In this document: positions 1-32,635 of the stretch, one piece after another
Layout: each line of letters opens with the position of its first letter
Position numbering within the stretch: the stretch's first letter is position 1
From: a virus
DNA length: 32,635 nucleotides
Direction: 5' to 3' (one strand)
Virus genome (UHGV): UHGV-0186667
Made by a program: the position numbers and the translations under genes
Notes under the pieces: model-generated
Database searches by the model: none
What the model was told of the DNA's origin: nothing
Seen by the model: the letters and a program-made list of their open reading frames with translations, nothing else

Positions 1-9
1 AATCATGAT

Positions 10-54
10 TGGTGGAGCTGGCGGGAGTTGAACCCGCGTCCGAAATTCCTACAT
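10..54 (-). repeat. att core: copy of the 3'-terminal ~45 nt of ssrA (tmRNA), minus orientation, adjacent to integrase
   Basis: Positions 10-54 read TGGTGGAGCTGGCGGGAGTTGAACCCGCGTCCGAAATTCCTACAT, the reverse complement of the E. coli ssrA 3' end as I remember it. Identity stops at 55, so this is a fragment, not the whole gene. Confidence 0.6.
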
Positions 55-171
55 ACCATTTTTACACTAACGAAATCATATTTTTTCATTTTAAATCATG
101 ATGTTAGTGTTAATCTGTGTTTGCTTGTTTTACTTGTTTTTAGTGCTCTGCCGCCAAAGTGCCGCCATTTA

Positions 172-1197
172 TTAGCGATGCCAGTTGAGGTTATGAAGTG
201 GATTTTTGGTAACGGCATCTTCCAGATGATCCGGTGCAAAATGGGCATAAATCATGGTCATTTTAATATCAGCGTGCCCTAAAATATCCCTCAATACTAA
301 AATGTTTCCGCCGTTCATCATAAAGTGGCTGGCGAAAGTGTGGCGCAGAACGTGGGTACATTGACCTTCAGGTAGTTCAATTCCAGCTCGTTTTACCGCA
401 CGCTCAAAAGCCTTTCGGCATGGTGTGAATAACTTTCCTCTGTTTTTGGGTAATTCTTCATACAGTTCCTGAGAAATAGGAACAGTTCGGTTTTTCTTTC
501 CTTTTGTTTTGGTATAGGTAATTCGATACTTTGATATCTGGTTACCTTGCAGGTTTTCGGCTTCGCTCCATCTTGCCCCGGTTGCCAGACAAATCTTGGC
601 AATCATTAGCAGACTGGGACTTTGAGATTCAGCACAAGCGTCAAGCAGGCGTTTGATTTCATCAGCAGCAAGGAACGCCAGTTCACCCTCTGCAATTTTG
701 AAAGTTGGCAGACCGGCGAGAGGGTTGGGTGCAGACCAATGTCCCAGCTTTTTCAGTGTGCCAAAAACTGAGGATAGGTTACGTTGTTCAAGGTTCACCG
801 TTCTGGGCTTAACTGGTGACATGAGCACACCATCTTCGTTTTTGACCTCACCTTTTAATCTGGCTTCCCGGTATTTTGTGAAATCACCTGCTGTCAATTC
901 AGAAGCGATGGGATCGCCAAGCCCATTACAAATGATTTTTAACTTAGCCATTAATCGCTTAGGGTCAGCGAGTGTCTGACCGTACAGGGAATACCATTGC
1001 TCAATCACTTCTGACAGTTGTCGCCGATCTTCCTTTTCTCCCAGCCAAGGTTTCTTGTTTACCTCGTCCATGGTGAAATTCTCAAACGCAATGGCTTCGC
1101 CTTTCGTCGCAAATTGTTTGCGTACGCGTTTGCCATCTCGCCCGTTTGGGTAGCATTCACATAACCACTTTCCGTTCGGCTGTTTTCTGATGGTCAT
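172..1197 (-). CDS. int: Tyrosine integrase, P2/186 family
   Basis: 341 aa. C-terminal motifs ATGARWSEA, HVLRHTFASHF and MIYAHFAP match the tyrosine-recombinase catalytic region of P2 Int. Sits next to the att core. Confidence 0.9.
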   Translation of the reverse strand: MTIRKQPNGKWLCECYPNGRDGKRVRKQFATKGEAIAFENFTMDEVNKKPWLGEKEDRRQLSEVIEQWYSLYGQTLADPKRLMAKLKIICNGLGDPIASELTAGDFTKYREARLKGEVKNEDGVLMSPVKPRTVNLEQRNLSSVFGTLKKLGHWSAPNPLAGLPTFKIAEGELAFLAADEIKRLLDACAESQSPSLLMIAKICLATGARWSEAENLQGNQISKYRITYTKTKGKKNRTVPISQELYEELPKNRGKLFTPCRKAFERAVKRAGIELPEGQCTHVLRHTFASHFMMNGGNILVLRDILGHADIKMTMIYAHFAPDHLEDAVTKNPLHNLNWHR

Positions 1198-1198
1198 A

Positions 1199-1831
1199 TC
1201 AAAGGCTCTTAATGATTTTCAGTGCGCGGCCTATTACCTTAATGTCATCCAGTTCGCACTCAAACGATGAATCATCCTGATGCACTACTAATCTGTTTCC
1301 CGGGAGTCGTGTCAATTTTACAATGCTTTTTATCCCGTCGATGTCCACTAACCACGTACCATTTACTGGTGGTGTTTGGTTGCGATCTATTAAATAAGAA
1401 TCACCAGAAGTAGTCACCAGCAGCAGGTTGCTTGAGTCTGAGGGGAGTATGCTGCTATCAATGATTGCTTTTCCAGCATCGACCAATAAACCACCGTTGA
1501 GAGTTGCCTTTTCAATTTCAGGAGATACAAGCTCAGAAAGAGGTTTAACCTTGCTGGGGTTCACGGAATTGATATTTTTTTTAGGGTCAATGTTTGAACC
1601 TGGCTCGCCCTGTCCGGTGGTTAGCCATAGTAAAGAAACTCCTGTTTCCAAGGCGCACTGAATCACCCATTCTGCGGGAAAGCTATCTCTTAAGTATCTG
1701 TTTGCCATAGTGCTTTTTGATGCACCTAAGTGATCGCAAAGTTGCTGTCTGGACTTGAAATCATAGGCTGCCATTAGTCTGTGGATAGCCTCTCTTCCCC
1801 CTGTATTCTCGCCAGCTTTTACCTGTATCAT
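1199..1831 (-). CDS. CI-type immunity repressor (phage 186 CI-like)
   Basis: 210-aa ORF divergent from apl/cII, with an N-terminal helix-turn-helix-like stretch (SRQQLCDHLGASKSTMANRYL). Start may be the internal Met at 1774. Confidence 0.65.
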   Translation of the reverse strand: MIQVKAGENTGGREAIHRLMAAYDFKSRQQLCDHLGASKSTMANRYLRDSFPAEWVIQCALETGVSLLWLTTGQGEPGSNIDPKKNINSVNPSKVKPLSELVSPEIEKATLNGGLLVDAGKAIIDSSILPSDSSNLLLVTTSGDSYLIDRNQTPPVNGTWLVDIDGIKSIVKLTRLPGNRLVVHQDDSSFECELDDIKVIGRALKIIKSL

Positions 1832-1895: not shown

Positions 1896-1950
1896 TAATA
1901 AAACAAGATAAAACTACATAAACCAAACCTTAATCGAGAGATACTGCACT

Positions 1951-2199
1951 ATGAGCAACGACATTTCAATTCGTGTACCAAAAGTGATGGCGACACCTGC
2001 AGAGTTCGCGGAATGGGAAGGCCGCTCTCGCGGTTCGGTATATCAAATGATTCATAATGGTAAACTCGCTAAGTTTTTGGAAAGAAAGGAAAAACCGAAA
2101 GACAGAGTATGTATACGTTACCTTGAGTACAAAAAGGAACAAGTCAGGAAAAACATGGGCCAATCCAATTTCAACTTTAATGTCATCGTTGGTGACTAA
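1951..2199 (+). CDS. Apl/Cox-like excisionase and early regulator
   Basis: 82-aa ORF, first gene of the rightward early operon and divergent from the repressor, as in P2 cox and 186 apl. Confidence 0.55.
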   Translation: MSNDISIRVPKVMATPAEFAEWEGRSRGSVYQMIHNGKLAKFLERKEKPKDRVCIRYLEYKKEQVRKNMGQSNFNFNVIVGD

Positions 2200-2231: not shown

Positions 2232-2741
2232 ATGTTTGATTACAAAATTTCCAAACATCCGCATTTTGATGAAGCCTGTAGAACTTTTGCACTACGTCAC
2301 AATATGGCGAAGCTGGCAGAACGTGCAGGAATGAATGTTCAGACACTGAGAAACAAACTCAACCCAGATCAACCGCATCAGCTCACCGCACCAGAAATCT
2401 GGCTGCTTACCGATCTGACTGAAGATTCAACGCTGGTAGATGGTTTTCTGGCTCAGATTCACTGCCTGCCATGTGTACCGATTAATGAGGTGGCAAAAGA
2501 GAAACTGCCACATTACGTCATGAGTGCAACCGCAGAGATCGGGCGTGTTGCTGCAGGTGCGGTATCTGGCGATGTAAAAACCAGTGCAGGTCGTCGTGAT
2601 GCTATCAGCAGCATTAACTCTGTAACACGACTGATGGCGTTGGCTGCTGTTTCATTGCAGGCCCGTTTACAGGCTAACCCTGCGATGGCGAGTGCAGTTG
2701 ATACCGTGACTGGCCTCGGTGCTTCATTCGGTTTGCTGTGA
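2232..2741 (+). CDS. cII: CII-like establishment activator (phage 186 CII type)
   Basis: 169 aa, same length as 186 CII; the translation resembles 186 CII as I remember it. Position after apl. Confidence 0.7.
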   Translation: MFDYKISKHPHFDEACRTFALRHNMAKLAERAGMNVQTLRNKLNPDQPHQLTAPEIWLLTDLTEDSTLVDGFLAQIHCLPCVPINEVAKEKLPHYVMSATAEIGRVAAGAVSGDVKTSAGRRDAISSINSVTRLMALAAVSLQARLQANPAMASAVDTVTGLGASFGLL

Positions 2742-3555: not shown

Positions 3556-3782
3556 TGGCTGATGCAATGGATCTCGTACAGCAGCGCGTTGAAGAAGAAC
3601 GCCAGCGTCATATCCGTGCTGCCCGTGCCAAAACGCCGGGCGTGTCCCGCGTGCTTTGCATTGAGTGTGAAGCGCCAATTCCGCCAGCACGCCGCCGTGC
3701 CATTCCGGGTGTGCAGCTTTGCATTACCTGTCAGGAAATCGCAGAGCTGAAAGGCAAACATTACAACGGAGGTGCTGTATGA
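3555..3782 (+). CDS. DksA/TraR-family C4 zinc-finger protein
   Basis: 75 aa with a four-cysteine motif CIECEAPIPPARRRAIPGVQLCITCQ, typical of TraR/DksA. Confidence 0.75.
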   Translation: MADAMDLVQQRVEEERQRHIRAARAKTPGVSRVLCIECEAPIPPARRRAIPGVQLCITCQEIAELKGKHYNGGAV

Positions 3783-4636
3783 GCACCATCCTGAAATGGG
3801 CGGGAAATAAAACTGCCATAATGTCAGAACTGAAAAAACACCTTCCTGCTGGCCCGCGACTGGTTGAACCTTTCGCGGGTTCCTGTGCTGTGATGATGGA
3901 GACGGATTACCCCAGCTATCTGGTTGCGGATATTAATCCTGATTTAATCAACCTCTATAAAAAGGTTGCCGCTGATTGTGAATCGTTTATATCGCGCGCC
4001 AGAGTTTTATTTGAGATCGCAAACAGGGAGGTGGCTTATTACAACATAAGGCAGGAGTTTAATTACTCCACTGAAATTACTGATTTCATGAAAGCGGTAT
4101 ATTTCCTGTATCTCAATCGTCACGGTTACCGTGGTTTATGTCGCTATAACAAGAGCGGGCATTTCAACATTCCCTACGGTAATTATAAAAATCCGTATTT
4201 CCCTGAAAAAGAAATTCGCGCATTTGCAGAAAAAGCCCAGCGGGCAACGTTTATCTGCGCCAGCTTTGATGAAACGCTGGCGATGTTGAAGGCGGGAGAT
4301 GTGGTGTATTGCGATCCGCCGTATGACGGCACGTTTTCCGGTTATCACACTGACGGCTTCACTGAAGATGACCAGTATCACCTGGCATCCGTTCTTGAAC
4401 ATCGGTCATCAGAAGGACATCCGGTCATTGTTTCTAACAGTGACACATCCCTGATCCGTTCGCTGTATCGCAATTTTACTCACCACTACATCAAGGCAAA
4501 ACGCAACATCGGTGTGGCAGCTGGCGAGGGTAAATCAGCAACAGAAATCATTGCTGTTTCCGGGCCGCGCTGCTGGGTGGGATTTGATTATTCGCGTAGC
4601 GTGGACAGTTCTGCCGTGTACGGAGTACGTGCATGA
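3779..4636 (+). CDS. dam: DNA adenine methyltransferase (Dam family)
   Basis: N-terminal ILKWAGNK motif, [15 protein letters not shown] block and DPPY catalytic motif (VYCDPPYDG) match E. coli Dam. Start ATG 3779 overlaps the upstream stop (ATGA). Confidence 0.85.
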
Positions 4637-7399: not shown

Positions 7400-7633
7400 A
7401 TGCGCATTGAAATAATGATCGATAAAGAGCAGAAGATTAGCCAGTCTACCCTGGACGCCCTTGAATCCGAGCTTTACCGCAATCTGCGTCCTCTGTATCC
7501 CAAAATGGTAATTCGTATCCGCAAAGGTAGCTCTAACGGTGTGGAACTGACCGGATTGCAACTGGACGAAGAAAGAAAACAAGTGATGAAAATTATGCAG
7601 AAGGTGTGGGAAGACGACAGCTGGCTGCATTAA
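7400..7633 (+). CDS. DinI-family protein
   Basis: 77 aa. MRIEIMIDK...LDALESEL...VWEDDSWLH aligns by eye with E. coli DinI (MRIEVTIAK...IDALAGEL...TWESADDWF). Confidence 0.75.
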   Translation: MRIEIMIDKEQKISQSTLDALESELYRNLRPLYPKMVIRIRKGSSNGVELTGLQLDEERKQVMKIMQKVWEDDSWLH

Positions 7634-7903
7634 GAAACGTTGCTGGCGTCTGAACTTGCTTCTGGCGTCAGCAAGGTTGAACAACGAGCTATGCGAGGCG
7701 TTAGTGTCAATTTGTTACCTTAACCACTATATATGCCAGGAAATTAACAGTTCTTAAGAAACAGCTTGCATGATCGAGCGCATTGAACTTAAGTTTAAGT
7801 AACGCAATCAACAGATGATATTGTTGTCTAAATTTTAAAGATAATCTGTTGAGGTTGTAGGCGTCGGAGTGTAGACTTCCGCGCCATGTGAAAAGGGGGA
7901 GTT

Positions 7904-8119
7904 ATGTCAAGCATCGCCGCATTTAGCCTGGGTAACCCAGTTGAACGTCTGGCAAGGGTTCTTAAAGAGAACCAGGACAAACTCAATCTTAGTAAAGATG
8001 GTTTTGTGTCCGTAGACTTGTCTAACAAAAGAGCAATGGATGCCATCAAGGCACAGATGGATAAGCTTGAAGGCATCAAAACGAGCACTGTAAAAGAGAA
8101 AACTAATAGAACCAGATAA
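7904..8119 (+). CDS. Hypothetical small soluble protein, first gene of a two-gene cargo operon
   Basis: 71-aa ORF with strong SD AAGGGGGAG 4 nt upstream; its stop overlaps the next start (TAATG). No recognisable family. Confidence 0.5.
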   Translation: MSSIAAFSLGNPVERLARVLKENQDKLNLSKDGFVSVDLSNKRAMDAIKAQMDKLEGIKTSTVKEKTNRTR

Positions 8120-8961
8120 TGGCAACATTACTTTTAGCAGTGATTTTGGTTAGTGGTTTTATTTATGTAAACCTATCACTTTCAACAAGATACCGATATA
8201 AGCGTTCCAACGGCTGGGACGCTTATTTTTTTGTGGCTGCCTGGGGTATCGTTTTTTTTCTCCTTGGCGGTTTTTTCACCTTTATTTTGAACGTCAGCGG
8301 AGGGTTTCGTTGGCTGGCTAATGCCTTGAATCTAACACCTGACAGTTTTAATGGCATGTTGTCTTCATCGAAAGACAAACTTCAAAGAATAAATGAAATC
8401 AAACAGATAGCATGGGTTATGATTTCAATTGTCCTCGCTGCGATTTCAGGTTTTGGAAATAAGTTACGCACATCACGTGGAGATCGTCGTTGGGATGCCT
8501 TAGCTAAAGCTGTGGGTAATAACGCTTTCGAATCATTACTCATGGAAGCGTCCGCAAGACAGTTTCCGATCATAGCAACTCTGTCGTCTCGCAAAATCTA
8601 TGTTGGTCTTGTTACTTGTCCGGCGTTAGAAAACGGGCTTTCAGAGCACCTTGAACTTCTCCCGATGTTAAGCGGATATCGGGATAAAGATGATCTAACG
8701 ATTAGTATCACGACTAACTATCACCAACATTATCTTGATAGTGGTGTGATAAGTGGAATGTCTCGGCTTAATATCGAAGATTTCCGTGTGCTCATACCAA
8801 AAGATGAGGTTGAAACAATTTCGTTTTTTGATACTGAGACATATAACAAATTTAAAGAAAATGAAGCCAGGGATAGAAAGAACTGTCGAAAGATTGATAG
8901 TAAAAGTGCATCTTCGCGCAGCAAGCGTGCAGCAGATGCTGAGTCAAATGATCGTGCATGA
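8119..8961 (+). CDS. Hypothetical membrane protein with three predicted TM helices and a soluble C-terminal domain
   Basis: 280 aa. Hydrophobic segments at about aa 3-19, 35-57 and 96-112; C-terminal ~170 aa soluble with a basic tail. Visibly AT-rich compared with phage core genes. Confidence 0.6.
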   Translation: MATLLLAVILVSGFIYVNLSLSTRYRYKRSNGWDAYFFVAAWGIVFFLLGGFFTFILNVSGGFRWLANALNLTPDSFNGMLSSSKDKLQRINEIKQIAWVMISIVLAAISGFGNKLRTSRGDRRWDALAKAVGNNAFESLLMEASARQFPIIATLSSRKIYVGLVTCPALENGLSEHLELLPMLSGYRDKDDLTISITTNYHQHYLDSGVISGMSRLNIEDFRVLIPKDEVETISFFDTETYNKFKENEARDRKNCRKIDSKSASSRSKRAADAESNDRA

Positions 8962-9078
8962 CTATGCTGCATGAGATCGCATGATCGTTTGAGGATCGTT
9001 TTTGCTAGGGCCCGCCAGAACTGGCGGGCTTTCGCGTAGATCATGCACCTGCATGAAAACTACTACATAAAGCGGGCA

Positions 9079-9097
9079 GGCGTGGCGGGGATACGAG
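9079..9097. other. Candidate cos (cohesive-end) site
   Basis: GGCGTGGCGGGGATACGAG shares its first 13 nt with the 19-nt cohesive end of phage 186 as I remember it (GGCGTGGCGGGGAAAGCAT). Lies between hairpins and a 16-bp palindrome. Confidence 0.3.
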
Positions 9098-9198
9098 CGC
9101 GCGCAACAGTGTAACAATCTGGATCTAATGTGATATAGTTACTGTAAATATTATTAACTATTCTTATATGCATTATTAAATATTTTAATGGAGCGTTT

Positions 9199-10872
9199 AT
9201 GGAAAAATATCAAGATGAGGAATATGTAGATGATTTAACTGAGCGTGTTTTTCTCATTAAGCAACAACTGGAAGCGGGAAAACTAAAAATAGCTCATCAT
9301 CTTGTAGAAGGTTTTATTGAAAGTTTTAAAAGAATAAGGCTGCGACAGGATGGTAAAGTTGACCCTTCTACTGTTGATGGCAGAATAAGGGCTATGGGAG
9401 CAGCGGTTAATCACTTTTTAGAAAGAGAAGATATAAAAAACAAATACTCTATTCAGGACTTGCAAAGTTCTTACTTTAATATTCTTTTTAGTAATTTTGG
9501 CGAGTTGTTTTATCTGATGAAAAAAACTAATGCAACGCCACATAAAGCATCAAGTTTTTTTTCTCAACAAGAAGAATATGTTAAGCAAATAGAAGATATT
9601 TTTCCTGAGTTATATAATCAGGTAATAGAGTTTTGGCAGGTAACATCCGATATTGGTGTAATACATTTGCAGGATGGTTCTCAGTTTAAAGCTAATTTTT
9701 CTGGTGACTTATTTCCTGCATTTGATGAGAATGCTGTCTCTATTGCAGGGTTGTATGTTGATACTATTTCACTTCCATGTCCTATATTAAGAGTCGGTCG
9801 TCTCTATGAAAAGTCAGATAAGGCTGAGTTTACAAGGATACTTCTGAAGCATGTCCTAACATGTATGACATATAAAGAAGTAGCGCTTGAAGATATAGAG
9901 CCAGCAATAGTATTAATTTTGCCGGATAGAAGAGATTTTGAAACTGAGAGCAAAAAAAATTTGATGAGTTTTTGTGAGCCTTATGCTCTGACTCATGCGC
10001 AATATCTCTATGATCGACGGTTCGAAAGCTACGATGAATTTCGAGATTTTAGTTATTCGATGAATGATATTGATGCTGTTCTTAAAAATATTAAGAGAGC
10101 AGATAGACTTATTTTTGATACAGCATGGGGGCTAAATCCAAAAACTCAATTAGAAAAACTACTATCTGATAAAAAAAGAATATCACGTAATGTTGTTGGT
10201 GATCATGCTGGAATGGAGGTTTTCCTTTCCTGCATTGGAAGAATGCCGCAAGCCTATTCAGCAAAATGTAATGCACAAGAACTTGGTAGTACTCCATATA
10301 TAAATGCAGACACATCTTGGCTCTATTATACTTGGCTTATTGAGTACGAATCTCTTAATTTTGATGTCAATGATATTGAACTAAAAAATTTGCATATGGT
10401 TCATGCGTTATCTGCTGGTATGCAAGATGGTTTTTCATGGTTAGGAAATGTACCGGTCAATAAAATAATTGAGTTGAGACGTAACAAATTGATGGAGGAT
10501 GTAAGATCCATCTTATCAAATGGTGTTGACTCTTTAATCAATTCTTCGGCAGAGAGCTTTTCGAGGACAACGCAAAAAGTAATTGATAATGTAGACCGGG
10601 CTTTTATTGAACATCAAAGGATTCTTGCAAAAGCCCAAAAAGAGAAATTGAGAATTTACGGACTAGATGTCCTACCATGTATCGCAAATGGTGCTATAGC
10701 AATTGCTGGAGCGCTGACTGGCAATACTACTTTAACGGCGTTAAGTGCAGGCCTTGGAGTAATAGGTATTCCGAGTATTAGTGATATCAAATCTAAATTT
10801 AAGCAGAGGCAAGAGAAGCTTGATGCCTATCAACGTTCTGTTACAGGTATACTCTTTAGCCATAAATCTTAA
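9199..10872 (+). CDS. Hypothetical 557-aa cargo protein with C-terminal hydrophobic Gly/Ala-rich segment
   Basis: Long uninterrupted ORF, strongly AT-rich, SD GGAG 5 nt upstream. No Walker A, no YxDD, no recognisable catalytic motif. C-terminal stretch IANGAIAIAGALTGNTTLTALSAGLGVIGIPSI looks membrane-inserting. Confidence 0.7.
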   Translation: MEKYQDEEYVDDLTERVFLIKQQLEAGKLKIAHHLVEGFIESFKRIRLRQDGKVDPSTVDGRIRAMGAAVNHFLEREDIKNKYSIQDLQSSYFNILFSNFGELFYLMKKTNATPHKASSFFSQQEEYVKQIEDIFPELYNQVIEFWQVTSDIGVIHLQDGSQFKANFSGDLFPAFDENAVSIAGLYVDTISLPCPILRVGRLYEKSDKAEFTRILLKHVLTCMTYKEVALEDIEPAIVLILPDRRDFETESKKNLMSFCEPYALTHAQYLYDRRFESYDEFRDFSYSMNDIDAVLKNIKRADRLIFDTAWGLNPKTQLEKLLSDKKRISRNVVGDHAGMEVFLSCIGRMPQAYSAKCNAQELGSTPYINADTSWLYYTWLIEYESLNFDVNDIELKNLHMVHALSAGMQDGFSWLGNVPVNKIIELRRNKLMEDVRSILSNGVDSLINSSAESFSRTTQKVIDNVDRAFIEHQRILAKAQKEKLRIYGLDVLPCIANGAIAIAGALTGNTTLTALSAGLGVIGIPSISDIKSKFKQRQEKLDAYQRSVTGILFSHKS

Positions 10873-10878
10873 TGTAGA

Positions 10879-10907
10879 GGGCCGAGGTATTCGGCCCTTA
10901 GTTTTAT
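10879..10907. terminator. Hairpin terminator between the 557-aa gene and the portal gene
   Basis: GGGCCGA (10879-10885), loop GGTAT, TCGGCCC (10891-10897), then TTAGTTTTAT. The T-tract overlaps the portal stop codon. Confidence 0.45.
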
Positions 10908-11935
10908 ATGAAACTGTATGGCATGAATTTTATTATGTCATCTTTGAGCCATTTATTGAGTTCTTCTATTCTGTTTTGTAGCGGTATCAATTCATTACGC
11001 ATAAAAACCTTACTAGCCTTCTCCACATCCCCAAATCCCCCAACATTATTCGGCATTATCCCCATCATTTGCGGCGGCACTCGGTGTGCTGCCATCATGT
11101 CATCCCGGCTCACGTTCTTGATATTCAAAAATTCATCCTTTGCCGCGACTTCTGATAACGGGATGATTTGAAGCCCGTCCTTTTTGCCGTTAGGCGAGTA
11201 CATAAACAGATTGCGGAAGTTGCCTGGACCTTTGGCGCTTTTCATTGCGTTGCGGAGGTTGTTCACATCCTCCTGGTTCTGCGCGGTATCGGTCATGTAC
11301 ATGATGAAGCCTGCATGGCTGCCGTTGATGTAATACTTACGGCGGAACAGCGTGGCGGACTCGTTGAGCAGGGCTGACGGAATGGCAGAAAGATAGCCGG
11401 GCAGGCCGTAGATCTCCTGGTTAATGTCCGGTTCCATCAGATGAAAAATGCTGCCTTTCGTGAACTGATACGGCTGGGTTGTCATACCGTATTGCACAAA
11501 CCAGTAGGTATCCAGGTCTAACCCGCGTCGGGTGTATTTTGCCAGAGCAGGCTCAAGGGCGATAACTTCACCGAAGCGGTTCGTGCGTTTCTCCAGGTAG
11601 GCGTTACCAAATACCAGATAGTCCTGCACAAAACGTGAAAAAGCCTGCTGGCTGAGCAGCGGATGGGGGATGTAGGTACTGGTCAGAATGTTGCATTTCA
11701 CCGCAATTGGTGAACTGTGATGCACGGCGGCGCGGAAGGTGCGTGCCAGTCCGTCAAAGCTTACTGGCGGCTCATACCAGCGATCTGTCTGTACGCATTC
11801 CACATAGTCCAGTAGTTCGCGGCGGTCCAGAACAGGAACGGGATCACCGAAGCTGAATGCTTCGGCTGTAGTTTGACTTTTATGCTGGATCTGGTTCGTC
11901 GACGCAGCGCGGTTCTTCTTACTCTTTCCCATCAA
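10904..11935 (-). CDS. Q: Portal protein (P2 gpQ)
   Basis: 343 aa (P2 Q is about 344), minus strand, immediately downstream of the terminase gene. Confidence 0.85.
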   Translation of the reverse strand: MMGKSKKNRAASTNQIQHKSQTTAEAFSFGDPVPVLDRRELLDYVECVQTDRWYEPPVSFDGLARTFRAAVHHSSPIAVKCNILTSTYIPHPLLSQQAFSRFVQDYLVFGNAYLEKRTNRFGEVIALEPALAKYTRRGLDLDTYWFVQYGMTTQPYQFTKGSIFHLMEPDINQEIYGLPGYLSAIPSALLNESATLFRRKYYINGSHAGFIMYMTDTAQNQEDVNNLRNAMKSAKGPGNFRNLFMYSPNGKKDGLQIIPLSEVAAKDEFLNIKNVSRDDMMAAHRVPPQMMGIMPNNVGGFGDVEKASKVFMRNELIPLQNRIEELNKWLKDDIIKFMPYSFI

Positions 11936-14690: not shown

Positions 14691-15749
14691 ATGAAGAAGA
14701 ATACCCGCTTTGCTTTTAACGCTTACCTGCAGCAGCTGGCGCGTCTGAACGGTGTGGCAGTTGAAGAACTGTCCAGCAAGTTCACCGTGGAGCCGTCTGT
14801 GCAGCAGACGCTGGAAGACCAGATCCAGCAGTCCGCCGCATTCCTGACGCTGATTAACGTCACGCCAGTGACTGAGCAGTCCGGTCAGCTGCTGGGGCTG
14901 GGAGTTGGCAGCACCATTGCCGGAACCACTGACACCACCGCGAAAGAGCGTGAACCTGTCGATCCGACGCTGATGGTCGATGTGGAATATAAATGCGAGC
15001 AGACCAACTTTGACACGGTGCTGACCTACGCGAAGCTGGACCTGTGGGCGAAGTTTCAGGATTTCCAGGTGCGCATCCGTGACGCCATCGTGAAACGTCA
15101 GGCTCTGGACCGCATCATGATCGGCTTTAACGGCGTGAAGCGTGCGAAAACCTCCAACCGTAGCGAAAACCCGCTGCTACAGGATGTGAACAAAGGCTGG
15201 CTGCAGAAAATCCGTGAGGATGCACCGGATCACGTCATGGGCAGCACCACCACGGGCGGTAAAACCACACCGGGCGCAGTGAAAGTCGGCAAAGGTGGCG
15301 AATATGCCAACCTGGACGCTGTAGTGATGGATGCGGTCAATGAGCTTATCGACGTGGTCTACCAGGACGATGACGATCTGGTGGTGATTTGCGGTCGTGA
15401 ACTGCTGTCTGACAAGTATTTCCCGCTGGTCAACAAAGAGCAGGAAAACAGTGAAAAACTGGCTGCCGATATGATCATCAGCCAGAAACGCATGGGTGGC
15501 CTGCAGGCCGTGCGTGCGCCATTCTTCCCGCCGAATGCGCTGCTGATCACCCGTCTGGATAACCTGTCCATCTACTGGCAGGAAGACACCCGCCGCCGTT
15601 CAGTTATCGACAACCCGAAACGTGACCGGATTGAAAACTTTGAATCCGTTAACGAAGCCTATGTGGTTGAGGACTACCGCTGCGCCGCACTGGTGGAAAA
15701 CATCCAGATTGGCGACTTCAGCGCCGCAGCAGCAGAAACCGGAGCGTAA
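14691..15749 (+). CDS. N: Major capsid protein (P2 gpN)
   Basis: 352 aa; the translation aligns closely by eye with P2 N (FNAYL...SKKFTVEPSV, VGKGG.YA.LDA.VMDA, ISQKR). Confidence 0.85.
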   Translation: MKKNTRFAFNAYLQQLARLNGVAVEELSSKFTVEPSVQQTLEDQIQQSAAFLTLINVTPVTEQSGQLLGLGVGSTIAGTTDTTAKEREPVDPTLMVDVEYKCEQTNFDTVLTYAKLDLWAKFQDFQVRIRDAIVKRQALDRIMIGFNGVKRAKTSNRSENPLLQDVNKGWLQKIREDAPDHVMGSTTTGGKTTPGAVKVGKGGEYANLDAVVMDAVNELIDVVYQDDDDLVVICGRELLSDKYFPLVNKEQENSEKLAADMIISQKRMGGLQAVRAPFFPPNALLITRLDNLSIYWQEDTRRRSVIDNPKRDRIENFESVNEAYVVEDYRCAALVENIQIGDFSAAAAETGA

Positions 15750-22144: not shown

Positions 22145-23544
22145 GCACAAAATTTTATACCCTGCTGACGGATATTGGCGCGGAGAAACTTGCCAGCGCC
22201 GCCGCGCTCGGTGTGCCGCTAAAAATTACCCATATGGCGGTGGGCGATGGTGGCGGAACATTGCCGACGCCGGACGCAAAGCAGAGTGCACTGGTAAATG
22301 AGAAACGTCGGGCTGCGCTGAATATGCTCTATATCGACCCACAGAACAGCAGCCAGATTATTGCTGAACAGGTGATCCCTGAAAACGAGGGCGGTTGGTG
22401 GATACGTGAAGTGGGCCTGTTTGATGAATCCGGGGCATTGATTGCCGTGGGAAACTGCCCGGAAAGCTATAAGCCGCAACTGGCTGAAGGTAGCGGGCGC
22501 ACTCAGACCGTGCGCATGGTGCTGATTACCAGCAGCACGGACAATATCACCCTGAAAATCGACCCTGCTGTAGTGCTGGCAACCCGCAAGTATGTGGATG
22601 ACAAGGCACTGGAGCTGAAGGTGTACGCGGATGATCAGATGGCAAAACATCTTGCCGCACCGGACCCGCATTCACAGTATGCACCCAAAGAAAGTCCGAC
22701 GTTTACCGGGACACCCAAAGCGCCAACGCCAGCAGCAGGGAATAACACCACGCAGATTGCGACCACCGCGTTTGTTCAGGCGGCTCTGACGGCTCTTATT
22801 AATGGTGCGCCAGCCACGCTGGACACGCTGAAAGAAATAGCCGCAGCCATTAACAATGATCCGAAATTCAGTACCACCATTAACAATGCACTGGCACTGA
22901 AAGCGCCGCTGTCGAGTCCGGCACTCACCGGAACGCCAACCGCACCTACTGCGGCACAGTCGGTCAACAATACACAGATTGCCACCACGGCATTTGTGAA
23001 ATCGGCGATTGCGGCAATGGTGGGTTCTGCACCTGCGGCACTGGATACACTCAACGAACTGGCGGCGGCACTGGGGAATGACCCGAACTTTGCCACGACA
23101 ATGCTTAATGCACTGGCAGGTAAACAACCGCTGGACAATACGCTGACTAATTTGAGTGGAAAGGATGTAGCTGGTCTTCTCACATACCTTGGTTTGGGAG
23201 AAGCAGCGAAAATGCCTGCTGCGACAGCATTAGCCAGCAGTGCAGGTAACATCACTATTCCAGTATTAATTGGTGGAGTACAACGAACAGCATTGCTTCA
23301 GTGGAAGACGCTATCAGTGCCGCAATCTACCGACGGTAATATGGTCGTTGTTGATGGCTCATGGCCGGTTGCCTTTCCTAATGCTTGCCTTTCCATCAAT
23401 CCTTCGCTGGTCAATTCTGTGATCTACGCGACTAATGGAGCCCCTTTTGTTAGCGCAGCGATTGTTGACCGGGTCAAATTCAAAGCCGCTTGCGCATACA
23501 CGAAATCTAATTCAACAGTGGCAGTATGGGGAGTGGGATATTAA
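22141..23544 (+). CDS. H: Tail fibre protein H; the C-terminal ~118 aa lie inside the invertible segment
   Basis: N-terminus resembles P2 H (MAVGDGGG) and later blocks (NDPNFATTMLNALAGKQP) match P2 H repeats. The crossover site sits at codons YLGLGE. Confidence 0.8.
   Translation: MSTKFYTLLTDIGAEKLASAAALGVPLKITHMAVGDGGGTLPTPDAKQSALVNEKRRAALNMLYIDPQNSSQIIAEQVIPENEGGWWIREVGLFDESGALIAVGNCPESYKPQLAEGSGRTQTVRMVLITSSTDNITLKIDPAVVLATRKYVDDKALELKVYADDQMAKHLAAPDPHSQYAPKESPTFTGTPKAPTPAAGNNTTQIATTAFVQAALTALINGAPATLDTLKEIAAAINNDPKFSTTINNALALKAPLSSPALTGTPTAPTAAQSVNNTQIATTAFVKSAIAAMVGSAPAALDTLNELAAALGNDPNFATTMLNALAGKQPLDNTLTNLSGKDVAGLLTYLGLGEAAKMPAATALASSAGNITIPVLIGGVQRTALLQWKTLSVPQSTDGNMVVVDGSWPVAFPNACLSINPSLVNSVIYATNGAPFVSAAIVDRVKFKAACAYTKSNSTVAVWGVGY
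23177..23202. repeat. Inversion crossover site (gix/hix-like), left
   Basis: TTCTCACATACCTTGGTTTGGGAGAA: two 12-bp half-sites around a central dinucleotide. Its right 14 nt are an exact inverted copy of the start of the site at 25008. Confidence 0.7.
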
Positions 23545-23987
23545 TGGTCGACTATGTATTCAGCCCGACGGAAAATGCTTTTTATCTTGTGGCACTGAAA
23601 TATGATTATTTAACTGCTGGCACATGGCCGTCAGACGGCATCAATATAAATGCTGAAGATGCACTGGTTTTCATGGGAAACGCTCCTGAGGGTAAAATGC
23701 GTGGCATTGGTGATGATGGGTTGCCTTGCTGGGTAGATCTTCCGTCACCTACGCATAAAGAACAACTTGCTGCGGCTGACTCAGAGAAAAAGTCGAGAAT
23801 TGACCATGCCAACGAATACATGAACGGTAAGCAATGGCCTGGTAAAGCAGCTATCGGTCGTCTGAAAGGTGAGGAACTGGCACAATATAATTTGTGGCTG
23901 GATTATCTGGACGCACTGGAGCTGATCGATACTTCCGGTGCGCCAGATATTGAATGGCCTACGCCTCCGGCAGTTCAGGCCAGATGA
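23526..23987 (+). CDS. G: Tail fibre assembly protein (chaperone for the current orientation)
   Basis: 153 aa with C-terminal motif LDYLDAL...WPTPP typical of tail-fibre assembly proteins. Confidence 0.75.
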   Translation: MGSGILMVDYVFSPTENAFYLVALKYDYLTAGTWPSDGININAEDALVFMGNAPEGKMRGIGDDGLPCWVDLPSPTHKEQLAAADSEKKSRIDHANEYMNGKQWPGKAAIGRLKGEELAQYNLWLDYLDALELIDTSGAPDIEWPTPPAVQAR

Positions 23988-24561
23988 CATCCGGCGCTGT
24001 GCTGGTATCTGTTGCCGTCACCGCGTCAATGTAATCCAGCACAGCGTTAAGGCGGATTGTTTCTGCCTGCGTCAGCTTCCGTCCGGCCTGTAATTTCAGT
24101 TGAATCAGACTGATGGAGGCCATTGCAGTATCAATCAGCAACGGGCGCTGTGCTTCTGCTGCATCTACTGCTGCGCCGTGCTGTGCCTCGGTATCTGTCA
24201 CCCATTTCTCACCATTCCATTCATCGTATGGCGTTAACGGGGCGATAGTGGTTGTATTTTCAGGATAATCACCCGGAGCTGTGATTTCTTTCGATTCTCC
24301 TGTTTCGGTGCTATAGACGATTTCACCGCGATGATCTGGCACATATTCCCATGAATTTAAATTCACAGAACGACAGATTGCATAACCAACCTTATGTATG
24401 CCAGGTGCATCAAGACAGGAACATGCCGGAATACCGACACCAACAGCAAGATATTCAGTTGACGTGGAAATATATTCCCGTGTTTCACCATCGTAGTTAT
24501 AAACGGTAACATCCCCTGCCTTTGTTGCAATAAGCTCACTATTTAATATTGCTTTATGCAT
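23959..24561 (-). CDS. Alternative tail fibre assembly protein (for the inverted orientation)
   Basis: 200 aa on the minus strand with C-terminal motif LDYIDAV...WPELP; convergent with G and overlapping it by 29 nt. Confidence 0.7.
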   Translation of the reverse strand: MHKAILNSELIATKAGDVTVYNYDGETREYISTSTEYLAVGVGIPACSCLDAPGIHKVGYAICRSVNLNSWEYVPDHRGEIVYSTETGESKEITAPGDYPENTTTIAPLTPYDEWNGEKWVTDTEAQHGAAVDAAEAQRPLLIDTAMASISLIQLKLQAGRKLTQAETIRLNAVLDYIDAVTATDTSTAPDVIWPELPEA

Positions 24562-25021
24562 CAGGCTGCCCTCACGATATAGTTAAATGCAATATTACGC
24601 GGACGGTTTTCGTTTGCAGTTGGAACAACTCTGGAAGCATCAAATGTTACTCGCTTTGCATAACCACCTTTAATTGAATCAGATGAAGCATCTCCGATGA
24701 CGCTGGTTGTAAAAGCACCAGAATCAGAAGGATAGGTATTAAACCTGACATCCACTAATGCACCAATTATATTTCGAATGGCATCGCCCTGTGATGAAAG
24801 CAAGCTACGGTTAGTATCAATTCCTCTTCCGTCATCCCAGCCGCGAATAAACTCACCACGTAAATCAGGCAATTTATTTGTCGGGTAAACTTTTGCCAGT
24901 TCCGGGTATTCTTCAGCAGAAAAAGCCGCACCATTGCATTTCAGCCAGCCTGTTGGCGGAGTGGCTGAAGGCCACGGAACAGGGACACCAACAGGTAATG
25001 CAGAGCCTTCTCCCAAACCAA
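24561..25021 (-). CDS. Alternative tail fibre C-terminal exon, fused to H only after inversion
   Basis: Minus-strand frame reads GLGEGSALPVG... through the crossover site, the same GLGE junction as in H. An in-frame ATG exists at 25061, outside the segment. Confidence 0.6.
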
Positions 25022-25033
25022 CGTTTATGAAAA
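25008..25033. repeat. Inversion crossover site (gix/hix-like), right
   Basis: TTCTCCCAAACCAACGTTTATGAAAA; its first 14 nt are the exact reverse complement of the right end of the site at 23177. Confidence 0.7.
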
Positions 25034-25082
25034 TGCAGAGATAACGGCTAACTGGCATCATCTCCGGTTTTTATTCAGGGGG

Positions 25083-25655
25083 ATGATCATGCTTATTGGC
25101 TATGTACGCGTGTCAACAAATGACCAGAACACCGATTTGCAACGCAATGCACTGAACTGTGCGGGATGTGAGCGGATTTTTGAGGATAAAATCAGTGGCA
25201 CCAAGTCCGACAGACCGGGGCTGAAAAAGCTGCTCAGGACACTATCGGCAGGAGACACGCTGGTTGTCTGGAAGCTGGACAGACTGGGGCGCAGTATGCG
25301 GCATCTTGTTACGCTGATAGAAGAGCTGCGCCAGCGTGGCGTGAATTTCCGAAGCCTGACTGACAGTATTGATACCAGCACCCCAATGGGCCGTTTCTTT
25401 TTTCATGTCATGGGTGCCCTGGCTGAAATGGAACGCGAACTGATAGTTGAACGTACCAGGGCGGGGCTGGCTGCAGCTCGTGCTAAAGGCAGAGTAGGTG
25501 GACGCCGTCCTAAGTTGACCAGCGAACAGTGGGCACAGATTGGGCGTTTACTCGAGGCCGGAGAATCAAGACAGCGTATTGCACTGATTTTTGATGTAGG
25601 CGTTTCTACCATTTATCGAAAATTTCCGGCAAATAAGAACAATAAATCTCCCTGA
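25083..25655 (+). CDS. Serine DNA invertase (Gin/Hin/Cin/Pin family)
   Basis: Near-identical to Mu Gin over most of its length (LIGYVRVSTNDQNTDLQRNAL, VVWKLDRLGRSM, MGRFFFHVMGALAEMERELI). True start may be ATG 25089. Confidence 0.9.
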   Translation: MIMLIGYVRVSTNDQNTDLQRNALNCAGCERIFEDKISGTKSDRPGLKKLLRTLSAGDTLVVWKLDRLGRSMRHLVTLIEELRQRGVNFRSLTDSIDTSTPMGRFFFHVMGALAEMERELIVERTRAGLAAARAKGRVGGRRPKLTSEQWAQIGRLLEAGESRQRIALIFDVGVSTIYRKFPANKNNKSP

Positions 25656-31056: not shown

Positions 31057-31538
31057 TGATGGTGCTGGGATTGTACGTGTTTATGCTGCGCACCGTTCCG
31101 TATCAGGAACTGCAGTATCAACGCAGCTGGCGACATGCGGCAAACAGCCGGGTAAACCGTCGTCCGTCAACGCAGTTTCTGGGACCGGAAAACGACATGC
31201 TGACGCTTTCCGGTGTTCTTATGCCGGAGATAACAGGCGGCAGGCTGTCGTTGCTGGCACTGGAGCAGATGGCAGAACAGGGGAAAGCATGGCCCCTGAT
31301 TGAAGGCAGCGGCACGATTTACGGCATGTATGTGATTGAGGGACTGAATCAGACTAAAACGGAGTTTTTCCGCGACGGTATGCCGCGCAGGATTGAGTTC
31401 ACCCTTTCGCTAAAACGGGTGGATGAATCCCTGTCCGATGTGTTCGGTGATCTCAGTACTCAACTGAATAATCTGCAGGACACGGCAACGTCTGCCTTAA
31501 GCGATATCAGTAAAACGGTGGGAGGGCTGCTGTCGTGA
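31053..31538 (+). CDS. U: Tail protein U
   Basis: 161 aa (P2 U is about 159), after T. Confidence 0.8.
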   Translation: MMMVLGLYVFMLRTVPYQELQYQRSWRHAANSRVNRRPSTQFLGPENDMLTLSGVLMPEITGGRLSLLALEQMAEQGKAWPLIEGSGTIYGMYVIEGLNQTKTEFFRDGMPRRIEFTLSLKRVDESLSDVFGDLSTQLNNLQDTATSALSDISKTVGGLLS

Positions 31539-32635
31539 ATTTCAGCTCTGAACTGCTTAACAAAGGAAACAAAACTCCCGCATTCAGCATCAGTATTGAG
31601 GGGAAGGATATCACCACTGTGCTGGATAACCGCCTGATGAGTCTGACGCTGACGGACAATCGGGGCTTTGAAGCGGACCAGCTTGATCTGGAGCTGGACG
31701 ACGCCGACGGAAAAATCGTGCTGCCGCGCCGTGGTGCGGTCATTACGCTGGCGCTGGGCTGGAAGGGGCAGCCGCTTTTCCCGAAAGGGGCATTCACGGT
31801 GGACGAGATTGAACACACTGGCGCACCGGACCGCCTGACTATCCGGGCGCGAAGTGCTGATTTTCGGGAAACGCTGAATACCCGCCGTGAAAAATCGTGG
31901 CATAACACCACCATCGGGGAAGTGGTGAAGGAAATAGCCGCGCGGCACAAGCTGAAGATGGCACTGGGTAAAGACCTGTCGGATAAGCCCGTGGAGCATA
32001 TAGACCAGACTAATGAGAGTGACGGCAGTTTTTTGATGCGGCTGGCGCGCCAGTACGGTGCCATTGCATCGGTGAAAAATGGCAATCTGTTATTCATCCG
32101 GCAGGGACAGGGCAAAAGCGCCAGCGGTAAACCACTGCCGGTGATTACTATCACACGTAAGGACGGCGACAGTCACCGCTTTACCCTGGCAGATCGCGGA
32201 GCTTACACGGGGGTAATTGCCAGCTGGTTGCATACCCGCGAACCCGCGAAGAAAGAAAGCACTACGGTGAAGCGTAAGCGCAGGACTAAGAAGCAGAAGA
32301 AAGAGCCGGAAGCGAAGCAGGGCGATTACCTGGTGGGGACGGATGAAAACGTGCTGGTACTTAATCGCACTTATGCCAACCGGAGCAACGCTGAACGGGC
32401 AGCGAAAATGCAGTGGGAACGCCTGCAACGTGGCGTTGCGTCATTCTCGCTACAACTGGCGGAAGGGCGGGCAGATCTCTACACGGAAATGCCTGTGAAG
32501 GTCAGTGGTTTTAAACAGCCGATAGATGATGCGGAATGGACCATTACGACTCTGACACATACCGTCAGCCCGGATAACGGTTTTACAACCAGTATTGAAC
32601 TCGAAGTGAAGATTGATGATCTTGAAATGGAATAA
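31535..32635 (+). CDS. D: Tail protein D
   Basis: 366 aa, last late gene before the expected ogr/att end; stop TAA at the window end. Confidence 0.8.
   Translation: MNFSSELLNKGNKTPAFSISIEGKDITTVLDNRLMSLTLTDNRGFEADQLDLELDDADGKIVLPRRGAVITLALGWKGQPLFPKGAFTVDEIEHTGAPDRLTIRARSADFRETLNTRREKSWHNTTIGEVVKEIAARHKLKMALGKDLSDKPVEHIDQTNESDGSFLMRLARQYGAIASVKNGNLLFIRQGQGKSASGKPLPVITITRKDGDSHRFTLADRGAYTGVIASWLHTREPAKKESTTVKRKRRTKKQKKEPEAKQGDYLVGTDENVLVLNRTYANRSNAERAAKMQWERLQRGVASFSLQLAEGRADLYTEMPVKVSGFKQPIDDAEWTITTLTHTVSPDNGFTTSIELEVKIDDLEME

Follow-up and report, generated by a model that had tools for sequence, protein, structure and literature searches.

An ssrA 3′ fragment at one end of a Fels-2-like prophage and the proposed 186-type organization of the adjoining attachment-site arm

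According to PMC3448106, which cites Pelludat et al. 2003 for this point, Fels-2 and SopEPhi integrate into ssrA. For the 186 group, the arm-type sites of the integrase have the consensus tgccGCCActt (Nilsson et al., PMC3448106), and the Apl protein of 186 binds both attP and the switch as phased direct repeats (PMC7498355). At the level of the chromosome, such integration is described by the Islander principle, in which an intact target gene is regenerated by element DNA, a displaced 3′ fragment of it remains at the other end of the element, and a tyrosine integrase is encoded inside (PMC4383910). Here, one end of a prophage related to Fels-2 was compared with these systems.

Identity and gene content of the element

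The window, by which we mean the whole stretch of 32,635 nucleotides analysed (UHGV virus genome UHGV-0186667), is a Fels-2-like temperate prophage of the 186 type in the P2 family. It carries the int–cI / apl–cII–fil module together with P2-type late genes, and its megablast relatives are the Felsduovirus/186-type phages SEN8, MLG42 and Fels-2. The genes to which the text refers are as follows.

172 to 1197, minus strand: int, tyrosine integrase (Pfam Int_N, PF24624, and Phage_integrase, PF00589), in the same orientation as the ssrA fragment
1199 to 1831, minus strand: cI, immunity repressor, in the lysogenic operon with int (Pfam Phage_CI_repr and Phage_CI_C)
1951 to 2199, plus strand: apl, excisionase of the Cox/Apl type and repressor of the switch (PHROG matches 'excisionase' and 'Cox-like excisionase and repressor')
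2232 to 2741, plus strand: cII, from ORF and domain annotation
31535 to 32635: gene D (gpD), the last gene of the window, whose stop codon is the window end

The integrase is 95% identical to that of Fels-2 and 56% identical to that of 186; the corresponding values for Apl are 70% and 29% (E 5e-10 for the match to 186). Replication genes follow cII, and the full P2-type late region comes after them. The early region also encodes a D12-class N6-adenine DNA methyltransferase (3719–4636). Between 1850 and 1895, overlapping and following pR, the sequence GTATCAAATATTG(G/A)ATC occurs twice, about 30 bp apart. These repeats, which are probably CI operators, are conserved in SEN8, MLG42 and Kp4845-2 and are different in Fels-2; this pattern suggests an immunity type distinct from that of Fels-2.

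A 3.3-kb accessory block (7634–10903) lies between a DinI-like gene (7400–7633) and the portal gene (10904–11935, minus strand) and is absent from the otherwise similar T28R prophage. Neither of its two plus-strand ORFs has a Pfam or NCBIfam match.

8119 to 8961, plus strand: accessory ORF 1, 280 aa, with a hydrophobic N-terminus that by eye resembles membrane helices; PHROG 3630, function unknown
9199 to 10872, plus strand: accessory ORF 2, 557 aa, with weak PADLOC matches to DitB (E 7e-10) and LeoBC (E 0.005)

Because the block occupies the known P2 accessory (tin/old) hotspot, it may be anti-phage defence cargo. Further along the late region, an invertible tail-fibre segment was recognized at 23177–25655, with about 1.8 kb between 27-nt inverted repeats. 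It resembles the Mu G / P1 C host-range switch and comprises the following parts.

23177 to 23203 and 25007 to 25033: inverted repeats of the segment, 85% complementary
23959 to 24561, minus strand: fibre assembly gene
24561 to 25061, minus strand: alternative, oppositely oriented fibre C-terminus with a Collar domain
25083 to 25655: serine invertase adjoining the segment (Resolvase, HTH_7)

The ssrA fragment and the two prophage ends

The prophage end inside the window consists of a short host flank and a copy of the att core.

1 to 8, no strand assigned: host chromosomal DNA that natively follows ssrA, equal to the flank at unoccupied sites
9 to 54, minus strand: copy of the att core, made up of base 9 and the displaced 3′-terminal 45 nt of ssrA (T-arm, 3′ acceptor strand and CCA)

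The first-pass annotation had placed the last ~45 nt of tmRNA, in minus orientation, at 10–54 and had proposed an alignment with host ssrA as a check. This alignment returned exact identity over 45 nt. Read in reverse complement, positions 10–54 (TGGTGGAGCTGGCGGGAGTTGAACCCGCGTCCGAAATTCCTACAT) give the ssrA 3′ end, and 45 of 45 nt match the tmRNA of E. coli T28R (L001 37856–37900), a gene identified there both in the annotation and by ARAGORN. Even with up to three mismatches allowed, the window contains the 45-mer a single time, with a shuffle expectation of 0. In a permissive E-value scan with the Rfam tmRNA model, a 5′-truncated match ending at position 10 scored 36.4 bits (E 3e-13), less than the gathering score, as a fragment should; the alignment covered no more than the helix-closing strand, T-arm, 3′ acceptor strand and ACCA. 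No complete tRNA or tmRNA was reported in the window by ARAGORN or by Rfam at the gathering threshold, which is likewise expected for a 45-nt fragment. Since the 5′ pairing partners are missing, the fragment cannot be a functional gene.

Identity to ssrA breaks exactly at 54, with ACC at window 55–57 and CCT in ssrA, and the inner core boundary (...CCTACAT) is the same as that of the attP annotated in the Fels-2 GenBank record. The earlier assertion that phage DNA begins at 55 therefore stands. In the virion-derived genomes SEN8 and MLG42, the ogr-side arm, the 45-nt core and the int-side arm are contiguous and show the same ACAT/ACCATTTTTA boundary. At the outer edge, base 9 (T) is also common to the far-end copy, so the direct repeat measures 46 bp (9–54). 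The tmRNA fragment and int both lie on the minus strand, along which the order is int, arm, fragment and host. Phage DNA thus stands where the body of ssrA should be, and 10–54 is therefore a displaced fragment and not the regenerated gene. It combines identity to the ssrA 3′ end with element DNA on its 5′ side and host flank at 1–8, and the ORF at 172–1197 (minus strand) supplies the tyrosine integrase inside the element that is typical of integration into tRNA and tmRNA genes.

The host flank inside the window, only 8 nt long (AATCATGA), differs from the ogr-proximal arm of the phage (..TTGATTTAT). In many complete E. coli genomes, the empty attB reconstructed by joining this flank to ssrA was found uninterrupted and at 100% identity, and at a coverage of at least 80% it was present in 2528 genomes. 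The junction together with the int module was found in 144 of 5426 complete E. coli genomes. We conclude, with a probability of roughly 0.93, that 9–54 is the int-proximal host/prophage junction of a Fels-2-like phage integrated in ssrA; the sequence identities, their boundaries, the empty site, the contiguous attP of virions and the second copy in relatives are direct observations. In the P2 map convention this junction is attL; along ssrA transcription it is the distal one.

The window itself holds no second core copy with up to three mismatches and ends at the stop codon of gene D, before ogr. In T28R, where the first 1300 nt of the prophage end are 100% identical to the window, the prophage extends from the same fragment to an intact ssrA followed by smpB, with a 46-bp direct repeat, and the second core lies 920 nt beyond gpD. 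All eight contigs with an identical gpD protein show the order gpD, ogr, 160-aa ORF, intact ssrA and smpB; their cores start 914–919 nt after the gpD stop, and ARAGORN calls in them a full 363-nt tmRNA with the tag ANDENYALAA. Hence the second core and intact ssrA that had been predicted past the other prophage end are present in nine of nine related assemblies, 914–920 nt past gpD, and the window stops about 920 nt short. The exact identity, this second copy in relatives and the empty sites support the original proposal of ssrA as the integration target.

Neither megablast with 25 kb of the window as query against complete E. coli genomes nor exact look-up of the gpD protein returned an assembly identical to the window over its full length. 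The best match to the 25 kb among complete E. coli genomes (megablast) had 97.5% identity over 91%, and the best gpD-sharing contig had 52 mismatches in the last 5.1 kb. Therefore, we infer the other prophage end of the window from its relatives. A truncated or defective element, with its far end and second att copy lost, would also account for a window that stops at the gpD stop with no second copy inside and for the failure to find an identical assembly. However, the window holds a complete set of P2-like genes running from int to gpD, and all nine related assemblies continue with ogr, the core (TGGTGGAGCTGG...) and intact ssrA, which makes such a loss very improbable.

In some strains, such as E. 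coli NCTC11023 (L014 5551–6050), the same ssrA fragment/int junction adjoins a truncated P4-type integrase gene, not the native flank; this arrangement is a tandem array of elements at ssrA. Genome matches H14–H16 and H19 lose identity, and with it the host flank, at query positions 8–10. That the fragment is a relic of an earlier element, such as a tandem array or a decayed island, and adjoins the prophage by accident is scarcely credible: NCTC11023 and these four matches do fit with ssrA as a busy integration site, but SEN8 and MLG42 hold this fragment, with its ACAT/ACCATTTTTA boundary, inside their contiguous attP, the attP annotated for Fels-2 includes it as well, and window 1–8 are the native flank of unoccupied sites.

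In the relatives, the regenerated ssrA is followed, 8 nt past the CCA end and in phage DNA, by a terminator-like 12-bp hairpin and TTTCTT. With the hairpin in phage DNA and the core phage-borne, the phage supplies both the 3′ end and the terminator of ssrA. A host hairpin near L001 6975–7000 (T28R, outside the window) was missed by a simple terminator scan and is visible in the sequence. Both core copies were identical in every lysogen examined; consequently, polymorphisms could not locate the crossover.

A 160-aa ORF on the minus strand lies between ogr and the attP arm in the E. coli relatives (L001 37250–37732; L006–L013 5415–5897) and in MLG42. It is conserved, has no Pfam match and is absent from SEN8, and its locus looks like a second cargo slot adjoining attP.

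Organization of the attP arm

The int-proximal arm between the fragment and int spans about 113 nt. Its G+C content is 32% for 55–171 and 27% for 55–148, against 52% for the window, in keeping with the first description of 55–171 as AT-rich. An alignment of the arms of five phages (the window, SEN8, MLG42, Fels-2 and Klebsiella Kp4845-2) was free of indels over 114 nt, with pairwise identities of 64–81% except for SEN8/Fels-2 (95%). Blocks invariant in all five are 55–64, 127–132 (GTTTTA), 138–142 (TTTTA), 149–158 and 160–167. The motifs of the arm, and the related repeats of the switch, are listed in order.

55 to 64, plus strand: ACCATTTTTA, directly adjoining the core, invariant in five phages
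74 to 86 and 94 to 106, plus strand: two IHF-like motifs, AATCAT-N4-TT, with AAATCAT twice, 20 bp apart
107 to 142, minus strand: four hexamers phased at 10 bp, GTGTTA at 107, GTGTTT at 117, GTTTTA at 127 and TTTTTA at 137; TAAAAC on the minus strand
149 to 167, plus strand: candidate Int arm-type site pair, TGCCGCCA twice with 11-bp spacing (direct repeat D1), invariant in five phages
1899 to 1924, plus strand: TAAAAC at 1899, TAAAAC at 1909 and TAAACC at 1919, 10-bp spacing, between pR (1844–1872) and the apl start

By analogy with phage 186, we infer which proteins (Int, Apl and IHF) act on these motifs and where the crossover falls. The invariant ACCATTTTTA at 55–64 is a candidate phage-side core-type contact of Int. 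The crossover probably falls close to the inner edge of the core, at about window 47–54, a placement suggested by the predicted crossover of 186 (7 bp, at the inner end of the tRNA block) and by the invariant 10-mer abutting the core. The 8-mer TTCCTACA, located at window 46–53 where the ssrA core has its inner end, is shared with 186 attP (L005 2030–2038), in which it starts at the last base of the annotated crossover region (L005 2024–2030) and enters phage-specific DNA. Its presence in two phages whose integrases are 56% identical could reflect a shared core-type Int contact or a coincidence.

The motifs at 74–86 and 94–106 are putative IHF sites, and in 186 the corresponding place carries an IHF footprint. 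In sequence, WATCAANNNNTTR is matched with one mismatch at 94–106 and more weakly at 74–86. Relatives hold AAAACAG or AAAACAT in these columns, and in them the two motifs co-vary in position. An inverted repeat at 61–71/103–113 was dropped as a candidate because it is not conserved in relatives.

For the integrase arm-type sites, the TGCCGCCA pair at 149–167 is the more likely assignment. The paired pattern has a chance expectation of 0.03, and it fits both tgccGCCActt and the arm-type consensus of the 186 GenBank record, YAYCGCCAYTY. On the ogr-side arm, which is outside the window, the counterpart GCCA-tttt-GCCGCCA is present in T28R, SEN8 and MLG42; with this pair seen in relatives, at least two direct arm-type repeats flank the core on each side, as in 186. 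In the Klebsiella relatives (Kp4845-2, L016 114–1672; L015 1–297), AT-rich cargo of about 1.5 kb separates the stop codon of int from the second Int arm site, inserted exactly between the two, and in Kp4845-2 this 1.5-kb cargo comes directly after the second TGCCGCCA copy. The slot thus accepts insertions and marks where the functional attP ends.

The short TTGTTTT-type direct repeats noted in the first-pass annotation do exist, as CTTGTTTT is found twice in the arm, at 124 and 133. The hexamers at 107–142 correspond, in reverse complement, to the TAAAAC repeats that lie between pR and pL. TAAAAC-like pairs at exact 10-bp spacing number four in 32.6 kb, where shuffled versions of the whole window gave a mean of 1.2, and three of the four fall in the two regions of about 100 bp where 186 has Apl operators. 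The switch repeats are kept in SEN8, MLG42, Fels-2, Kp4845-2 and ST15-OXA48phi14.1. The same inverted relation is present in 186, with TTGCCA-type hexamers at attP and TGGCAA-type hexamers between pR and pL, and its record annotates five Apl sites at attP and seven Apl operators at the switch. At the level of sequence, then, phased repeats of the RDF type on the int-proximal arm share their motif with the pR–pL repeats, as in a 186-type site. By this analogy, 107–142 are likely to be operators of the excisionase Apl rather than Int sites, and 1899–1924 are probable Apl operators of the lysis–lysogeny switch. The outer two hexamers of the arm are weak (4–5 of 6 positions), and in MLG42 the spacing is off by 1–2 nt. 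The 9-mer TAAAACAAG, common to arm and switch, was found nine times in the window with at most one mismatch and seven were expected. As this is not significant alone, the argument for Apl rests on phasing, position and conservation.

Two other readings of the T-rich repeats were weighed. They may bind no specific protein and represent bent AT-rich DNA or an extended IHF site, with the match at the switch coincidental. Such a reading would suit a short T-rich motif inside a stretch of 27% G+C, the absence of window-wide enrichment of TAAAACAAG and the occurrence of one phased pair at 15444, within a structural gene. However, the location of three of the four phased pairs in the places of the 186 Apl operators, the invariance of GTTTTA and TTTTA amid diverging neighbours, and the same att/switch inversion in 186 with a different motif (TTGCCA vs TGGCAA) render it unlikely. 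The earlier proposal that the TTGTTTT-type repeats (~118–142) are integrase arm-type sites draws on direct repeats in an AT-rich stretch between core and int and on the conservation of GTTTTA and TTTTA in five phages, but it did not survive the comparison. The repeats do not match tgccGCCActt or YAYCGCCAYTY (PMC3448106; 186 record), no GTTTTA-type repeat is conserved on the ogr-proximal arm, and the T-rich repeat recurs inverted in the pR–pL switch, like the RDF operators of 186. Moreover, a perfect and invariant TGCCGCCA pair with a match on the other arm is available at 149–167. We therefore consider this proposal highly unlikely and prefer Apl operators at 107–142.

Proposed recombination and comparison with known systems

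In the mechanism that we propose for integration at 9–54, attP carries the 3′-terminal 45 nt of ssrA as a copy, and a heterobivalent Int would exchange strands between this copy and the identical chromosomal ssrA 3′ end, within the 45/46-bp identity. From the core outward, the arm would present the invariant 10-mer, the IHF-like motifs, four phased Apl operators and two Int arm-type sites. The N-terminal domain of Int is expected to occupy the GCCA arm sites, with the core-binding and catalytic domains on the core, so that Int would assemble with IHF on an attP of about 270 bp and capture the ssrA 3′ end. Integration would join the 5′ 318 nt of ssrA to a single 3′-end copy, with the phage terminator hairpin following it at the far (ogr) end, and tmRNA would thereby stay intact; the other core copy, which is the one in the window, is stranded as a non-functional fragment beside int. 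For excision, Apl on its phased operators would bend the arm, and Int and IHF would then recombine the two core copies.

From geometry, it is conceivable, if quite doubtful, that integration rewires the 3′ end of the lysogenic cI–int transcript in a manner comparable to lambda sib. In the phage circle, the strong hairpin terminator would lie just across the core from int, and cI–int transcripts would end there; the 186 record holds a comparable predicted terminator across the core. In the prophage, the hairpin would have moved to the far end, where it would terminate ssrA, and the cI–int transcript would read in sense through the orphan 45-nt fragment into host DNA. If so, int mRNA in lysogens would have a different 3′ end, formed by part of a tRNA-like sequence, and perhaps an altered stability.

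Integration into ssrA by Fels-2-type phages and the 186-type attP layout are already documented, and no new biology is involved here. The analysis fixes one exact prophage end, with phage DNA starting at 55, and names the integration target. It also predicts the far end, with the second core about 915–920 nt beyond the window inside an intact ssrA, and a lysogen that keeps functional tmRNA. These results are of use for annotation, for prophage boundary calling and for the design of attP/attB PCR assays. A small addition for the Fels-2 group is the sequence-level assignment of probable Apl operators (TAAAAC/GTTTTA) and candidate Int arm sites (TGCCGCCA).

Among other systems at this target, CP4-57 and other P4-type islands use E. 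coli ssrA and leave a 3′ ssrA fragment. They differ in having an integrase of an unrelated subfamily and in being islands rather than P2-type phages, and they are not part of the window. Lambda attP is likewise served by a heterobivalent integrase with arm-type and core-type sites, is bent by IHF and has RDF sites on one arm only. Unlike the site described here, lambda has a 15-bp core and an intergenic attB, and its Xis is not also a switch repressor. Compared with the Islander signature, the window junction shows nothing essential that is different; its 45-nt block fits the class with a crossover at the position equivalent to the anticodon loop, the crossover placed here being a predicted one.

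The resemblance to 186 is extensive. In both phages the order is ogr/B, arm sites, terminator, target-gene 3′ end, IHF, phased RDF operators, arm sites and int, the IHF, RDF and Int sites of the window being putative. In both, the target-gene fragment reads in the same direction as int, GCCA-type arm repeats occur on both arms (in the case of the window, across its phage group), and the att operators are the reverse complement of the pR–pL operators. In contrast, the target of 186 is the ileY tRNA (tRNA-Ile) with a 36-nt block, whereas that of the window phage is ssrA; the Apl operator motif is TTGCCA in 186 and GTTTTA in the window phage, and 186 has an extra orf69 between arm and int. In addition, the sites of 186 are footprinted (IHF and Apl) or annotated as predicted (Int arm sites), whereas those of the window are assigned by comparison.

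Fels-2 is closer still. Its core sequence and inner boundary are identical to those of the window, the order int–cI–apl–cII–fil is the same, and its arm has the same length, 73% identity and the same invariant motifs. The two differ in host (Salmonella vs E. coli), in Apl (70% identical) and in accessory cargo (8119–10872 in the window). The shared att block measures 46 bp in the window and an annotated 47 bp in Fels-2 because the host flank differs. The window junction is thus a near-identical E. coli counterpart of Fels-2 attL, organized like 186 attP.
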